Of a DNA stretch of 64,000 nucleotides, positions 17,378 through 58,306 are shown piece after piece. Made by a program: the position numbers and the translations under genes. Origin of the DNA: an uncultured Phycisphaerales bacterium (lineage in GTDB: Bacteria > Planctomycetota > Phycisphaerae > Tepidisphaerales > Tepidisphaeraceae); contig CAVWVQ010000003.1 in the NCBI GenBank assembly GCA_963758525.1, positions 1,216,001-1,280,000 on the forward strand. Reading direction: 5' to 3'. The notes under the pieces are model-generated. The model searched no databases. It was not told the origin of the DNA and saw only the letters and a program-made list of their open reading frames with translations. Within the stretch, counting starts at the first letter, position 1; each line of letters opens with the position of its first letter.

Positions 17378-18025
17378 TCAGACGGCCAGCGCCACGCCCA
17401 GGGCGGATTTATTGTTGCTCATGACGACCGTTTCCCAGAGGTCGATGCTTTCCAGCTTGAAGCGGTAGTCGACTTCGACGCCGGTCCGGCGAACCAGGTC
17501 CTGCAGGGCCAGGTCGCTGCGCCAGCCGAGCTTGGTGCAGAGGGGGCAGAGCCATTTCTCGACCAGTGCGATGAGCCGGTTGGTGGACTGGAAATGATTG
17601 ACGATCACGATCCGCGAGCCCGGCTTGGCGACGCGCTGGGCCTCGCGAACCAGGCGATACGGATCGCTGACGACGCTGATCACATGGCTGATAAAGATGT
17701 GATCGAAGCTGTTGTCGGCAAATGGAAGTTTCAAGGCGTCGGCCTGGAAGACGGTGGTGTTGGAGAGCCCCAGTTCCTCGATCTTCTTGCGGGCCTTGCC
17801 GAGCATCCCGCTGGAGAGATCGACGCCAATGATCCGGCCGCGATTGGGCTTGTAGAAGCTCAGCGAGCAGCCGGTTCCGACGCCCAGATCCAGAACGCGG
17901 TCGTCGGGGCCAATGTCCATGTGCGAGATCGCATTGGCAATGCGCTTGCGAACAAGCCGGCCGAACGTGGCGTCGTAAAAGAGAGAATGAACGTCGTAGA
18001 TTTTCTTCGTGCTCGATTCCTGCAT
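17378..18025 (-). CDS. Class I SAM methyltransferase (PmtA-like phospholipid N-methyltransferase)
   Basis: VLDLGVGTG, GVDLSSGML, VISVVSDP, RVAKPG and IVNHF. Confidence 0.8.
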   Translation of the reverse strand: MQESSTKKIYDVHSLFYDATFGRLVRKRIANAISHMDIGPDDRVLDLGVGTGCSLSFYKPNRGRIIGVDLSSGMLGKARKKIEELGLSNTTVFQADALKLPFADNSFDHIFISHVISVVSDPYRLVREAQRVAKPGSRIVIVNHFQSTNRLIALVEKWLCPLCTKLGWRSDLALQDLVRRTGVEVDYRFKLESIDLWETVVMSNNKSALGVALAV

Positions 18026-18119
18026 GGCGGTTCCGGCTTCCTGTCCCCTGAGGACGTTCCGGGAAATGTAGTGCATTGCTGAATTATTGCCAAGCAGGTT
18101 TATCGAAACACAGGGTTTA

Positions 18120-18262
18120 GGCGGTGGCGCTCGAAAGTGGCGATCGGCTCCGAGTAGGGCGGGATTCATCCCGCCGATTTGTTGGCCGGCTGAGAAAACG
18201 GCGGGATGAATCCCGCCCTACGATCGCAAAATCTGCAATCGCCACAAATAAAAGTTACACCC
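18120..18262. mobile_element. 143-bp MITE, copy 1
   Basis: Flanked by direct repeat AGGGTTTA (18112-18119 and 18263-18270). Near-identical reverse complement of 47366-47508. Internal REP doublet at 18154-18221. Confidence 0.88.
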
Positions 18263-18304
18263 AGGGTTTATCGAAACCGCCGGATCATGCGGTCTTAATA
18301 TTTC

Positions 18305-19809
18305 TCAAACCCAATTCAGCGATCGCTCGATCGCTTTGTGCCATTCTGTCAGCAGGCGGGCGCGGGTTTCGCCGGACATCTGCGGTTGCCACGACTTATC
18401 TTCGCGCCACGCCTGGCGGAGGTGGTCCAGGCCGTTCCAGAATCCGACGGCCAGGCCTGCGGCGTACGCCGCGCCAAGCGCCGTGGTTTCGGTCACGGCG
18501 GAACGAATGACGGGGATATCGAGCACGTCGGCCTGAAACTGCATCAGCAGATCATTGACCGCCATTCCGCCATCTACGCGGAGCGCTTTGGGAACGACCC
18601 CCGAATCATCCCGCATGGCGTCGAGCACGTCGCGCGTCTGAAACGCGGTTGCTTCGAGCACCGCCCGCGCGAGATGAGCCTTGGTGGCGTAGGCGGTGAG
18701 GCCGGCCACGATCCCGCGCGCGTCGGAACGCCAATAAGGAGCGTAGAGCCCGGAAAAAGCGGGTACGAAATACACGCCGCCATTGTCGGGGACGGAACGG
18801 GCGAGGGTTTCGATGTCGCTCGATTTGGAGATCAGGTTCAGATTGTCCCGGAGCCATTGGACCAGCGCGCCGGCGATGGCAACTGAACCTTCCAGCGCGT
18901 AGACGGCGGGCTGACCGGCGATTTGATATCCGACGGTCGTGAGCAATCCGCTGCGCGAGACGATGGGCGCTTCGCCGGTATTGAGCAGCATGAAGCAACC
19001 GGTGCCGTAGGTGTTTTTGGATTCGCCGGGGGAGAAGCAGGTTTGCCCGACGAGGGCGGCTTGCTGATCGCCAAGGCAGCCGCAAACGGGAATTGAATCG
19101 AGGAACGGACCGTCCGACCGCGTCCGGCCCCACGACGCTGGATCGACGGAACAGACAATCCGCGGCAGCGTCTGGCGCGGGATCCCCATCACATCGAGCA
19201 TCTCATCGTCCCAGGCGAGCGTCCTCAAATCCATGAGCATGGTTCGGCTGGCGTTGGTCACGTCGGTGACATGCGCGCCGCCGTCCGGGCCGCCCGTGAG
19301 ATTCCAGATGAGCCAGGAGTCAATGGTGCCAAAGAGGGCATCGCCGGACTCGGCGGCGGCGCGAGCACGGGAAGATGGTCGAGGAGCCAGCGCAACTTCG
19401 GGCCGGAAAAGTAAGTCGCCAGCGGCAGTCCGACTTTTGCTCGGAAACGGTCCTGCCCGCCCTGGGCGGCCAGCGCGTCGCACATTTCCTTGGTGCGGGT
19501 GTCCTGCCAGACGATCGCATTGCCCAGCGGACGGCCCGTATGGCGGTTCCACAGCACGGTCGTCTCGCGCTGATTGGTGATTCCCAGCGCCGCCACGTCG
19601 CCAGGGCGGGCTTGGGCACGCTTCAGCGCGCCGGCAATCACTTCCTGCGTGCGCCGCCAGATTTCCATCGGATCATGCTCGACCCAGCCCGGCTGCGGGA
19701 AATGCTGCTGATGTTCCTGTTGCGCCTGAGCCACCGGCCCGTTCTCGTCGAACAGAATGCAGCGCGAGCTGGTCGTTCCCTGATCGATAGCGGCGATGAA
19801 GCGTCCCAT
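18305..19809 (-). CDS. glpK: Glycerol kinase (frameshift at ~19368)
   Basis: [48 protein letters not shown] and ETTALGAA. Confidence 0.95.
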
Positions 19810-27413: not shown

Positions 27414-27559
27414 GCAGAGCGCAGCCGTTGTCGAAAGTGCGCCCGATGCCGACGCCCGCTTGCCCCCTCTCCCGGTACTCCGGAAGAGGGTCGGGGTGAG
27501 GGTGCTTTGGAGCACCAACAGCCTACGACGCTCCAAATCACCCTCACCCCAACCCTCTC

Positions 27560-28207
27560 CCGGGGTGCCGGGAGAGGGGGTCGCGCGCCCGCGTCGCGGT
27601 AGGGCGGGATTCATCCCGCCACGGCTTTCGGCACCGCGAAACATCGGCGGGATGAATCCCGCCCTACATTCTGACCACTGCGGACCGGCTTGTCCGTTCA
27701 CGTCTTCACGTCTCACGTTTCAGTATCTTCCCGTCACGTTCCAATCACCCATTTTCTCTCACATCGCGATCTCCGGGGTATCGGGAGAGGGCGTCGCGCC
27801 CCGCGTCGCGGTAGGGCGGGATTCATCCCGCCACGGTTTGCGGCACCGCGAAACATCGGCGGGATGAATCCCGCCCTACATTCTCAGCGCCGCGGACCGG
27901 CTTGTCCGTTCTCGTCTTCACGTCTCACGTTTCAGTATCTTCCCGTCACGTTCCAATCACCCGTTCCCTCTCACATCACGATCTCCGGGGATGCCGCGAG
28001 AGCGAGTTGCACCCTGCCGCTCTGTAGGGCGGGATTCATCCCGCCGCGGCTTTCGGCACCGCGAAACATCGGCGGGATGAATCCCGCCCTACATTCTGAC
28101 CACTGCGCACCGGCCTGTCCGTTCACGTCTTCACGTTTCACGTTTTCAGCATCTTCCCGTCACGTTCCAATCACCAATCACCCGTCCCCCTCTCACATCC
28201 CGATCTG
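27560..28207. repeat. Three tandem ~212-bp units, each with a GTAG REP doublet
   Basis: GTAGGGCGGGATTCATCCCGCC...GGCGGGATGAATCCCGCCCTAC at 27599-27667, 27811-27879 and 28024-28092. Each is followed by a TCACGT-rich tract. Confidence 0.93.
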
Positions 28208-47183: not shown

Positions 47184-47331
47184 GCGTGCGCAGCACCCCA
47201 AACCTTTAGCCGCCTCGCTCGCGAGGTGTGTCCAGTTGCGCGGTTGTCGCAAACCGCGCCAAGCTGAGCTTCCGCGCCCCTGGACGCGCCTCGCAAGCGA
47301 GGCGGCTAAAGGTTTGGAGTGCTGCGCACGC
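47184..47331. repeat. Long inverted repeat, TTAGCCGC/GCGGCTAA family
   Basis: Near-complementary arms of about 50 bp. A related element is at 58356-58464. Confidence 0.85.
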
Positions 47332-47365
47332 GGGAAGGACCGGACGTTGGTCCCCTCGCGGAATT

Positions 47366-49050
<1,685 letters not shown>

Positions 49051-54054: not shown

Positions 54055-56960
54055 ATGATCTATCGGATAGAGGTGCGCGGAGAGTCAGTTGCCCAAGGCA
54101 GAAATTCCACCTCTGACCCGCTCGGGGAGACCATTCGCCGGCAAATCGCCGAATTCAGCGATGATCCCGGACCGATTCAGACGCGACGTGTTTTTCTGAT
54201 CGACAGCGACGCCGACGTCAGCGGGATGCGGCGCGTGGCCAATGAACTTCTCGCTGATCCGATCGCTGAGTCAGGCGTGCTCGTCACGACAGCCGCGGCC
54301 CCATCCGCCGGCTCCAGAATAGAAATTCATCTCAAGCCGGGCGTCATGGACCCCGTCGCGGCCTCCACGGAGATGGCCATCCGCGACATGGGGATTCACG
54401 TGACGCAGGTGCGAACGGGGCGCTGCTGCCTCTTTGAGAAACCGATCGATCGGGATCGGCTGGCGCATATCGCCGCCCGCGTTCTGGCCAATGGAGTCAT
54501 CGAATCGGTCCATTTTGAAATGTATCTTCCCGCCGATTTTGCAGGCGGGCATCTCAGTCGATTCCAGTTGCAACACGTTTCGGTCCGCGACCTGACCGAC
54601 GAGCAACTCACTAAACTCAGCCGCGAAGGCCATCTTTTCCTCTCTCTGGCCGAGATGAAGGCAATTCAGTCGTACTACCGCGAACAGAGTCGCGAGCCGA
54701 CGGATGTTGAGTTGGAGACGCTGGCACAAACCTGGAGCGAGCATTGCGTGCATAAGACGCTCAAAAGCGCAGTCGAAGTGGAGGTTCGCAATGCCTCGGG
54801 CAAAGTGGTGGAAACGCGCCGGTATGGAAACCTGATCAAGGAAACGATTTTTGCGAGCACGAAGAAGTTAATGCAGGAGAGGCACGAAGGGGCGGAGGCA
54901 CGGAGGCACGCGGAAGAGAGGCACGAAGGCACGGAGGCACGGAGGCACGAAGGGGCGGAAGAGGGGGAGTTTTGTCTTTCGGTCTTTTCGGATAATGCGG
55001 GGGTGATCGCGTTCGACGAGACGGATGCGGTTTGCTTTAAGGTCGAGACGCATAATCATCCCAGCGCGATCGAGCCGTATGGGGGGAGCGCGACCGGGAT
55101 TGGCGGGGTGATTCGCGATATTCTTGGCACGGGACTTGGCGCTAAGCCGATTGCGAACACCGACGTCTTTTGTGTCGCATCGCACGATTTTGCAAAGCGT
55201 TTGCCGCGTGGCGTGATTCATCCAAAGCGCGTTCTCCAGCAGATCGTCGCGGGGGTGCGCGATTACGGCAATCGAATGGGAATCCCCACCGTCAACGGAG
55301 CGGTTTATTTCGACGACCGCTATCTTGGAAATCCCCTGGTCTTCTGCGGCTGTGTCGGCCTGATCCCGCGCGACAAGATTCACAAGCAGTCCCGGCCGGG
55401 CGATGCCGTGGTTCTGATCGGCGGACGCACCGGGCGGGACGGGATTCATGGCGCCACGTTTTCCAGCGCTGAGTTGACCGACACCCACGCCGATGAGTTT
55501 TCACATGCCGTTCAGATCGGAAACGCGGTCACCGAGAAGAAAGTGGGTGACGTCATTCTCGCAGCGCGCGATCGCGGACTTTTTACCGCGATCACCGACT
55601 GCGGGGCGGGCGGGCTCTCCAGCGCCGTCGGGGAAATGGGGGAAAAGATCGGCGCCAGATTGCGCTGGAGAAGGTCCCGCTGAAATATGCCGGGCTGCGG
55701 CACGATGAAATCTGGATCAGCGAGGCACAGGAGCGCATGGTGCTCTCGGCGCCGAAGGACAAGCTGGAAGAACTGCTGGCGCTGGCGGCGGAGGAAGACG
55801 TTGAGGCGACGGTCATTGGGCATTTCGGAACGGAGAACCGGGAGTTGGTCCTGAACTACCACGATGCTGAGGTTGCCCGCCTCTCCATGGACTTTTTGCA
55901 CAACGGCATTCCGATGCCGACGCGGAAGGCGGTTGTGGAAATGCAGGAACAGGGGGCGGGGGCGGATGTCCCTCGGTCCGGGCACGGGTTGGAAACCCGT
56001 GGTACGGACAGGCTTCTCAAGACGCTGGCGCATCCGAACATTGCCAGCAAGCATTGGGTGATCCGGCAATACGATCACGAGGTGCAGGGTGGCTCGGTGA
56101 TCAAGCCGCTGACGGGGCCGCTGCAAATCGGGCCGTCAGATGCGGCGGTGGTTCGCCCCAAGCTCTCCAGCTATCGCGGCGTGGTAATCGGCTGCGGACT
56201 GTGCCCGCAGATTGCCGACCCCTATGAGATGACACTCGCCGCGATCGACGAAGCGGTGCGAAATATCGTTGCCGTCGGGGCGGACCTGTCGCGCGTCGCG
56301 ATCCTCGACAACTTTTGCTGGCCCAGCGTAGATGACGAAAGAACGATGGGCACGCTGGTGCGTTCCTGCGAAGCCTGCCGCGATGCCGCGCTCGCCTACG
56401 GAATTCCTTTCATCAGCGGCAAGGATTCCCTGCACAATCAATTCACCAATCAGGAAACCGGAGAGGTCATCCGCATCCCGCGCACGCTCCTGATCAGCGC
56501 CATCGGCGTGATCGAAGATGTCCGCCGGTGCATCACGATGGATTTGAAGCAACCCGGCAACCGGATCGCGACCGTCTCGGCCGCGGACGACATGCATGGC
56601 CGCGTCGCGATGCACCGCGCGTTGTCCGCTGCAATTCGCAACGGCCTGATCGTCAGTTGTCACGACAGCAGCGACGGCGGCATTCTCACAGCCGCCGCCG
56701 AGATGTGCATCGCGTCGGGGCTTGGCCTCGATATCAGCTTCGACGACGAAGACGCCGCATTTCGCGAATCAACGGCGACGTATGTCATCGAATACGACCT
56801 GTCACGTCACGATGAACTGGCCGCGTTTCTAGGCGATAAGCTCAAGGATCGTGGAGTCGTCACGGCCGAAGCACGCCTGCAAATGACGTGTGCGGGGCTG
56901 ATTACGGAAATTCCCGTCGCTGATCTGACAGGCGCGTGGCGCGGCACGCTGGATTGGTAA
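54055..56960 (+). CDS. purL: Phosphoribosylformylglycinamidine synthase PurL with PurS-like N-terminus (frameshift at ~55657)
   Basis: [31 protein letters not shown] and DCGAGG. The next frame has SEAQERM, QYDHEV, GKDSL and HDSSDGG. Confidence 0.95.
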
Positions 56961-58237: not shown

Positions 58238-58306
58238 GTAGGGCGGGATTCATCCCGCGGTGTTTTGACGGAATGCCGAAGGACGGCGGGATGAATCCCG
58301 CCCTAC
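58238..58306. repeat. GTAG REP doublet (family A)
   Basis: Same arms as the MITE core and the 27.6-28.1 kb array. A variant is at 49477-49555. Confidence 0.9.

Follow-up and report, generated by a model that had tools for sequence, protein, structure and literature searches.

A miniature element beside predicted promoters with a GTAG REP doublet in a Tepidisphaeraceae genome and its candidate ISKra4-type mobiliser

The two window copies and their neighbours

The window analysed here is a stretch of 64,000 nucleotides of contig CAVWVQ010000003.1 (assembly GCA_963758525.1, an uncultured Phycisphaerales bacterium) and contains two copies of a 143-bp element. Copy 1 (18120..18262, + strand, 143 bp) lies between a methyltransferase gene starting at 18025 and, on the opposite side, the end of glpK at 18305. 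It is flanked by an 8-bp target duplication (AGGGTTTA, + strand) at 18112..18119 on the left and 18263..18270 on the right. The left terminal repeat (18120..18144, +), whose tip is mutated to GGCGGT, matches IR-left of an insertion sequence (IS) clade found in related genomes, the partner clade described below, and the right terminal repeat (18238..18262, -) is 21-23/25 identical to the IR-right of that clade. Between them is a GTAG REP doublet (18154..18221), which consists of one REP at 18154-18175 (+), a 24-bp spacer and a second REP at 18200-18221 (-). Outside the left end, consensus matching predicted a sigma70 promoter on the - strand (18065..18093; -35 TTGGCA at 18093-18088, -10 TACATT at 18070-18065), with the methyltransferase gene downstream of it.

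Copy 2 (47366..47508, - strand, 143 bp) showed the same arrangement. Its 8-bp duplication (GCGGAATT, + strand) occupies 47358..47365 and, on the promoter side, 47509..47516, and its GTAG REP doublet spans 47407..47474. The consensus-matched sigma70 promoter outside its left end (47535..47562, +; -35 TTGCCT at 47535-47540, -10 TACAAT at 47557-47562) is followed by atpD (ATG at 47630). The two copies differ at three of the 143 positions (3, 4 and 117), and the ends form an imperfect inverted repeat, GGGTGT-N11-GTGGCGAT, that is identical at 16/25 positions. A sequence-only reading of the window had described a reverse-complement pair of 143-bp copies with about three differences, each with its own 8-bp direct repeat and with this imperfect terminal repeat, in a window free of transposases. 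All of this was borne out; the family scan of the 46 window proteins matched no transposase family.

The REP 22-mer had 12 matches in the window and none in 100 shuffles. Eight out of the 12 form four doublets that lack the element's ends, as the same reading had placed them (27599, 27811, 28024 and 58238). Three of these make up a tandem array of ~212 bp units with a different spacer (27599..28092), and the fourth lies between two genes of the same direction (58238..58306). Each ~212-bp unit of the array (window 27540-28190) pairs a REP doublet with a decaying GGGAGAGG-type hairpin. A different palindrome doublet adjoins copy 2 on its right-end side (47190-47330). Within the target of copy 1 we observed a tandem duplication of ~17 bp (18096-18279), and other copies in the genome have comparable short repeats in tandem on the side that faces the promoter (e.g. 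C3:1700664, C3:2908324 and C3:4900047); these are possibly footprints of earlier insertions. The genes for a type II/IV secretion ATPase (1104-2954) and purL (54055-56960) are each split over two frames, and atpD (47630-48817) matches 346/462 model positions, likely owing to assembly indels.

Copies, promoter spacing and the REP core across the genome

We searched the whole genome (G000; 6.47 Mb in 6 contigs, 90.9% complete) by BLAST and obtained 82 full-length matches of the element. The 69 matches of >97% identity were used for the duplication and promoter counts and the 13 below 97% were excluded. Among the 69 copies, 40 showed an exact 8-bp duplication, 13 an exact 9-bp duplication, 10 a duplication with one mismatch, and six showed none. 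Distinct duplications were therefore present in 63/69 copies, compared with 2/2000 random pairings of flanks. No target sequence preference was evident within the duplication at 40 sites. Empty paralogous sites with a single target were present within the genome for three copies that lie inside other repeats (C1:270746, with 89-94% identity across the junction, C2:368627 and C3:1479404). The sequence-only reading thus withstood the checks it had set itself on duplications, sharp boundaries and single-target empty sites, the last of these on paralogous sites of this one genome. The element has the properties of a MITE, being short and non-coding with terminal inverted repeats, copy-specific target duplications and single-target empty paralogues; no autonomous element with the same ends was found in the same genome, where only distant ISKra4 elements are resident.

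The copies are very similar to each other. At length 143, 45/68 were identical to the consensus, mean divergence was 0.26%, and only one variant was common to two copies, which points to one recent burst from one master. All copies are intergenic according to the gene calls, which come from a codon-score caller in which some starts overrun. The 68 copies scored for context comprised 27 in divergent, 38 in tandem and three in convergent settings (p = 0.0012 against intergenic space). The whole element folds with a z-score of -7.9. One derivative of 101 bp (C3:3379074-3379174) retains both ends, a single hairpin and its own 8-bp duplication. Three Rfam matches to microRNA hairpins were far under their gathering scores and were treated as chance.

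The full element was found in none of 40 related genomes, and three of these gave matches to the ends or the core only. In sequencing reads from three runs of one study the shares were 0.11, 0.05 and 0.00, and the holders listed included no RNA data set. Read cover was sparse: neither copy 2 nor any of the three L165 copies was spanned by a contig, and one contig each in X1 and X2 carried all 143 bases with one difference and with unmatched flanks. Exact left and right ends occurred 0 and 0 times in metagenome contigs, and two candidate loci were listed in viral contigs.

To one side of the element, the flanks are strongly structured. The profile outward from the left end showed T at nt 28 in 46/69 copies and an AT-rich box at nt 50-56, whereas the right flank was flat. 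With promoters taken as consensus calls and the window chosen after inspection of this profile, -35 and -10 boxes were called jointly, with the start at nt 26-29, in 32/69 left flanks, 0/69 right flanks and 14/1380 control windows. TAnnnT at nt 49-52 was found on the left in 43 copies and on the right in one, and either signal in 56 against six; 13/69 copies showed no promoter signal. The spacing follows the length of the duplication. TTG began at nt 27 rather than nt 28 in 15 versus three copies with 8-bp duplications and in 0 versus eight with 9-bp duplications (p = 1e-4), such that the -35 box starts 18 nt past the duplication in both classes. The 9-bp duplications gain their extra base on the side opposite the promoter, which predicts that the cut nearer the promoter is the one at a fixed position.

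The same polarity and spacing were observed in the partner clade, where the promoter call was on IR-left in 6/17 full elements and on IR-right in 0/17. These 17 exclude seven loci without one end and L264, which was dropped as a false pairing; of the extra IS copies in G057, two out of five were scored. Short shells with the same ends in other genomes gave a weaker signal (14 versus 4 of 33 rows). Doublets without the ends had a promoter call in at most 7/130 flanks in any window, and their divergent/convergent gene context (8/16) differed from that of the MITE (27/3; p = 3e-5). Insertion at a fixed distance upstream of sigma70-like promoters is a trait of the ISKra4 group, although side and distance here differ from those given by Guerillot et al. 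(2014; PMC3942029). As promoter-upstream insertion is known for that family (PMC3942029), its occurrence lends independent support to movement by a DDE transposase.

A second family with flanking promoter calls was noticed during this survey. An IS1202-family element (NF033594, 381 bits) has TGT ends and duplications of 16-18 bp, the range reported for ISTde1 (bioRxiv 2022.12.17.520857). Three copies are in G000 (C3:2149724-2151251, C3:3356228-3357755 and C3:4237641-4239168), with further loci in L283-L307. The -35/-10 call lies 1 nt past the duplication in 3/3 G000 copies and 1-4 nt past it in 12/14 duplication-bearing elements among the 25 loci examined. By this consensus-based measure, the IS1202-family element likewise homes to predicted promoters. 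Two of the three G000 copies share their promoter with a MITE copy, and in G125 one such element is 27 nt from a partner-clade IS.

The 68-bp core consists of two inverted GTAG-tagged palindromes that form a long hairpin, as in GTAG REPs and REPINs. Allowing three or fewer mismatches, the REP 22-mer matched the genome 372 times, and 162 of the matches were within the 82 full-length copies. Out of 158 doublets, 80 had both arms and the MITE spacer (the full shell), 11 had one or both arms, 66 had neither arm nor spacer, and one had the spacer alone. A second filter gave 65 shell-free doublets, which had 60 different spacers and in 65/65 cases no flanking repeat of 5-11 bp. The usual REP setting, mainly behind genes and without target duplication, applies to these 65 and does not apply to the MITE-borne doublets.

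Among the 140 other genomes of the family the REP was present in four, with 96 hits in G096, 16 in G108 and six in G083, and none of 12 loci inspected in these three genomes had it inside the MITE's ends. In G108 (C62), the exact 22-mer occurs twice upstream of a RAYT gene (127 bits, cut-off 80), and near variants of the REP adjoin RAYTs in L176, L185 and L190. The search for a RAYT that the sequence-only reading had proposed thus succeeded in a relative, but in G000 the REPs beside the only RAYT to exceed the cut-off belong to another family. No cognate RAYT could be assigned in G000, since none of the 23 Y1 matches had the REP within 1.5 kb except via one MITE copy. Judged by these sequence contexts, the core of the MITE is a true REP that exists independently of the shell.

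The same doublet also lies in two other shells, which account for 17 of the 65 shell-free doublets. One has TAGTAC..CCCCAT ends and five copies (C1:81644, C3:567220, C3:2399188, C3:4944837 and C4:114241). The other has CTAGTGG..CATTCC ends, which recall the CTAGTG tips of resident IS630 elements, and 12 copies (e.g. C4:5818, C4:120964 and C3:4582342). A Y1 (HUH) gene family with ~12-14 copies in G000 (e.g. C3:303765-304539 and C1:315999-316775) has long inverted repeats containing GAAGCTGTTAAGGTGACATCC, and these bracketed genes resemble the TIRtrons of PMC3733652.

Partner elements, exchanged cores and the candidate mobiliser

We scanned 185,579 species genomes with the pattern of the MITE ends and obtained at least 77 loci, 50 of those listed being in Phycisphaerae (Tepidisphaeraceae and relatives). 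One of them, L126, is a 1432-bp IS in a related genome whose ends match the left and right ends of the MITE in order (20/25 and 23/25). Its coding region is split between a short first frame and, past an A7G4 -1 frameshift site, a second frame that encodes D154, D233, DxxH and E347; D154, D233, D256xxH259 and E347 were invariant in 4/4 aligned proteins. Its best family was NF033572 (E 1e-54), at 186 bits against a cut-off of 205 with only the post-frameshift frame scored, and its named matches were ISCasp3 and ISCasp2 at 28-32%. L126 itself showed no target duplication. The ends and the partner elements have the features of the ISKra4 family, namely inverted repeats of 18-39 bp ending in C, 8-9-bp duplications and a DDE triad with C/DxxH. 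In the seven elements whose protein is >=70% identical to that of L126, 21-23/25 positions agreed with the MITE right end, in comparison with 16-17/25 for the ISKra4 elements resident in G000.

This partner clade (~1.43 kb, frameshifted) was present in 26/141 family genomes. In the G000 assembly (90.9% complete), the best tblastn matches were 23-31% identical and none reached E <= 1e-30. After G000, shell ends were most numerous in G125 and G146 (34 and 15 matches), and these two genomes also have the partner transposase, at 79% and 70%; G096 has shells and no partner among the matches listed. The autonomous IS with GGGTGT ends that the sequence-only reading called for was found as a close partner in related genomes, and in this assembly as distant ISKra4 elements only. 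IS256, which it had offered as a possible mobiliser family, was rejected: PF00872 had no match in the genome (the control was positive in 6/14 genomes), and the ends match ISKra4-family elements instead.

The end pattern was present in 17/140 other family genomes, which as kin are not independent of each other. We recovered 33 rows of short shells (94-299 bp) from 11 genomes; L123 was entered twice, giving 32 sites. A duplication was present in 29 rows and a palindromic core in 33/33. Besides the GTAG REP, the cores were of five kinds (GGGAGAGG-type, GTGGGGCAGAC, CGTC-type, GTGGCACAGCCG and GTGACACGGG). Because the search pattern derives from these very ends, it may have passed over shells whose ends have drifted, whether empty or with other contents. 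Folding z-scores ranged from -0.8 to -15.3, with single hairpins the weakest. For the three kinds counted, the host genomes have far more cargo palindromes than ends (157 against 15 in G146, 541 against 7 in G096 and 11 against 2 in G005). Position 12 of the left end was a pyrimidine in 14/14 shell representatives and a purine in 10/10 listed IS left ends.

Nested insertions were seen in the shells at L092, L163 and L056, with palindromes within palindromes, and one 1194-bp shell among the nested cases has a 9-bp duplication and an insert of ~1 kb. G000 itself retains decayed left ends of this type at C1:251285, C3:4147842 and C3:4336050; at the first two of these loci, the relic ends surround a palindrome of the GGGAGAGG type, not the GTAG REP.

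From the match of ends, duplications and promoter side, we consider that a transposase of the partner clade, since lost from the genome or unassembled, probably copied the shell to promoter-upstream sites with the doublet as its passenger. The weakest point of this assignment is the absence of the clade from the present assembly. The mobiliser would be a Mutator-like DDE transposase supplied in trans that recognised the ISKra4-type ends of the 69 copies and inserted the element, always the same way round, ahead of predicted sigma70 promoters. Excision may have passed through a circle, with guidance by the RNA polymerase initiation complex, according to the model put forward for related elements (PMC3942029). 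The REP doublet would have entered the shell once, likely by its own HUH (RAYT) route or by repair, and would have been a passenger since. The proposal of the sequence-only reading that a REP doublet hitch-hikes in a DDE-type miniature element is supported by the sharp ends, the duplications in 63/69 copies, the empty paralogous sites and the REP that occurs independently of the shell. Oriented insertion upstream of predicted promoters, and the same ends around other repeats in relatives, go beyond it.

The main rival reading is that the same DDE mechanism was driven by a resident ISKra4 element acting on related ends. Such elements are present in G000; a repeat survey of this genome found them with GGGTGT tips, 8/9-bp duplications and NF033572 as best family. 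The pair of 1498 bp (C3:3320260-3321757 and C5:72113-73610), one base apart, retains all of D, D, DxxH and E, and a promoter was called beside it at nt 27-28. We nevertheless regard a resident mobiliser as unlikely, as the resident ends match those of the MITE at just 13-15/25 positions on the left and 16-17/25 on the right, and the promoter side is IR-right, in contrast to the left end in both the MITE and the partner clade. In eight elements of the resident type, the promoter call was on IR-right in five (one at nt 31) and on IR-left in none. In the resident 1466-bp copy (C3:1464719-1466184), moreover, a gap of three residues follows the second aspartate. All resident ISKra4 genes are interrupted at the same TTTT(T)CCCCC run, past which the reading frame is +1 to the first, versus the -1 shift in L126. 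Movement of the whole 143 bp by the REP/RAYT (HUH) system, with the outer arms as passive flanks, appears very improbable. It would account for a core that is a RAYT-associated REP in a genome that has numerous Y1 genes and one RAYT exceeding the cut-off, and for ten doublets that keep the left arm only, several of them ending at the GTAG tag. However, 65/65 shell-free doublets have neither a 5-11-bp flanking repeat nor the promoter spacing, the REP that borders the resident RAYT is not this one, and the same ends, with target duplications, elsewhere enclose unrelated cargo and a transposase gene.

Those ten left-arm-only partial copies could also be taken as steps in the truncation of MITEs to free REP doublets, with nothing captured, which is how the short QMITE2 copies of Coxiella are read in PMC5896051. 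Against this, 60 different spacers occur among the 65 shell-free doublets, and just one armless doublet has the MITE spacer. The REP is moreover present in G096, G108 and G083, beside a RAYT in G108, and outside these ends at the 12 inspected loci. On these sequence comparisons the view of the REPs as MITE debris appears already largely refuted, and we give it very little credence. Selection could by itself yield the intergenic position of all surviving copies if insertion were random and only promoter-upstream copies were retained. A one-base register, a single orientation and a shift that tracks duplication length are not readily produced by selection, and this explanation is scarcely credible.

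Returning to a partner-clade transposase as the probable mobiliser, a bolder reading of the shells can be put forward tentatively. The ISKra4-type shell might be a long-lived carrier for which a REP-type hairpin is required or beneficial, and whose core is swapped for the common palindrome of its host, with HUH enzymes loading it and a promoter-guided DDE transposase amplifying it. The palindromic cores in 33/33 rows, the six core families that share ends, the relic ends in G000 and the split at position 12 are the basis for this possibility, which we hold to be doubtful but worth stating. If it is true, protein-binding hairpins would be delivered to dozens of promoters at once.

A borrowed transposase has likely made about half of the REP pairs of this genome, placing them before, not behind, genes. 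This would be a second route for the multiplication of REP doublets besides RAYT. Because 80/158 doublets are in the full shell, REP counts and divergence are not readable as RAYT activity alone. REP hairpins, which are usually behind genes, are here put 18 nt plus the duplication upstream of predicted promoters such as that of atpD. The 69 oriented sites offer a ready data set and substrate for studying promoter recognition by bacterial transposases of the Mutator-like type. From the way in which distance varies with duplication length, one can also predict which of the two cuts is set relative to the promoter.

Relation to known systems

The ISKra4 family corresponds to the p-MULT 4 Mutator-like IS of Guerillot et al. 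(2014; PMC3942029). The MITE and its partner resemble this family in their GGG-tipped inverted repeats and 8/9-bp duplications and, for the partner, in the DxxH DDE transposase (PMC3942029). Part of the family (e.g. ISCasp2 and ISCasp3) inserts upstream of sigma70/sigmaA promoters, as observed here, but the 143-bp element is non-coding, unlike ISKra4-family IS. The planctomycete members include ISSiac5 and ISGob7, for both of which Table S1 gives 0 promoter junctions; the ends of ISSiac5 (1429 bp) begin GGGTGTAACTC in that table, likewise the IR-right of L126 (PMC3942029). The promoter-targeting p-MULT 4 elements, 13 of them in the ISKra4 group, are described with near-perfect repeats and insertion both ways round, and for p-MULT 3 (ISLre2/TnGBS) IR-right is 15-17 bases from the -35 box (PMC3942029). 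In contrast, the ends of the MITE are alike at 16/25 positions, IR-left is toward the promoter, and the gap is 18 nt past the duplication (26-27 from the end). According to the model in the same source, the RNA polymerase initiation complex is contacted and the intermediate is circular. Within its groups ISAzba1, ISMich2 and ISKra4, the -1 frameshift is a trait of ISMich2 and promoter targeting a trait of the ISKra4 group (PMC3942029).

A MITE with an internal GTAG REP is known from Coxiella burnetii, namely QMITE2 (Wachter et al. 2018, PMC5896051; reviewed in PMC10969869). QMITE2 (150-190 bp) shares with the present element the terminal repeats, direct repeats (7-11 bp in QMITE2) and the internal GTAG REP, and its short versions are plain REPs (PMC5896051). 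It lies mainly in 3' regions and is described as fixed before strain divergence, whereas the MITE described here appears to be a recent burst upstream of predicted promoters. The passages on QMITE2 in PMC5896051 name neither a partner transposase nor a RAYT, and for this MITE an IS clade was identified by its ends. REPINs are described as slow duplicators, at ~1e-8 per generation versus 1e-5 for MITEs, and as mostly downstream of genes (among PMC3733652, PMC3337134 and bioRxiv 2021.07.10.451892); the MITE-borne doublets differ in being nearly identical, target-duplicated and upstream of predicted promoters. REPs and MITEs are handled as separate classes in the relevant parts of PMC3733652, PMC3184786, PMC3337134, PMC11602168 and bioRxiv 2021.07.10.451892. 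A full-text search of the literature, with most subscription papers and ISfinder outside its scope, did not bring up an ISKra4-derived MITE that carries REPs, a promoter polarity tied to the left end, or a family of ends whose palindromic cores change. Both halves of the system have precedents, in QMITE2 and in the promoter-targeting ISKra4 elements, and the aspects for which this search gave no precedent are the named partner, the left-end polarity and the repeated change of cargo.
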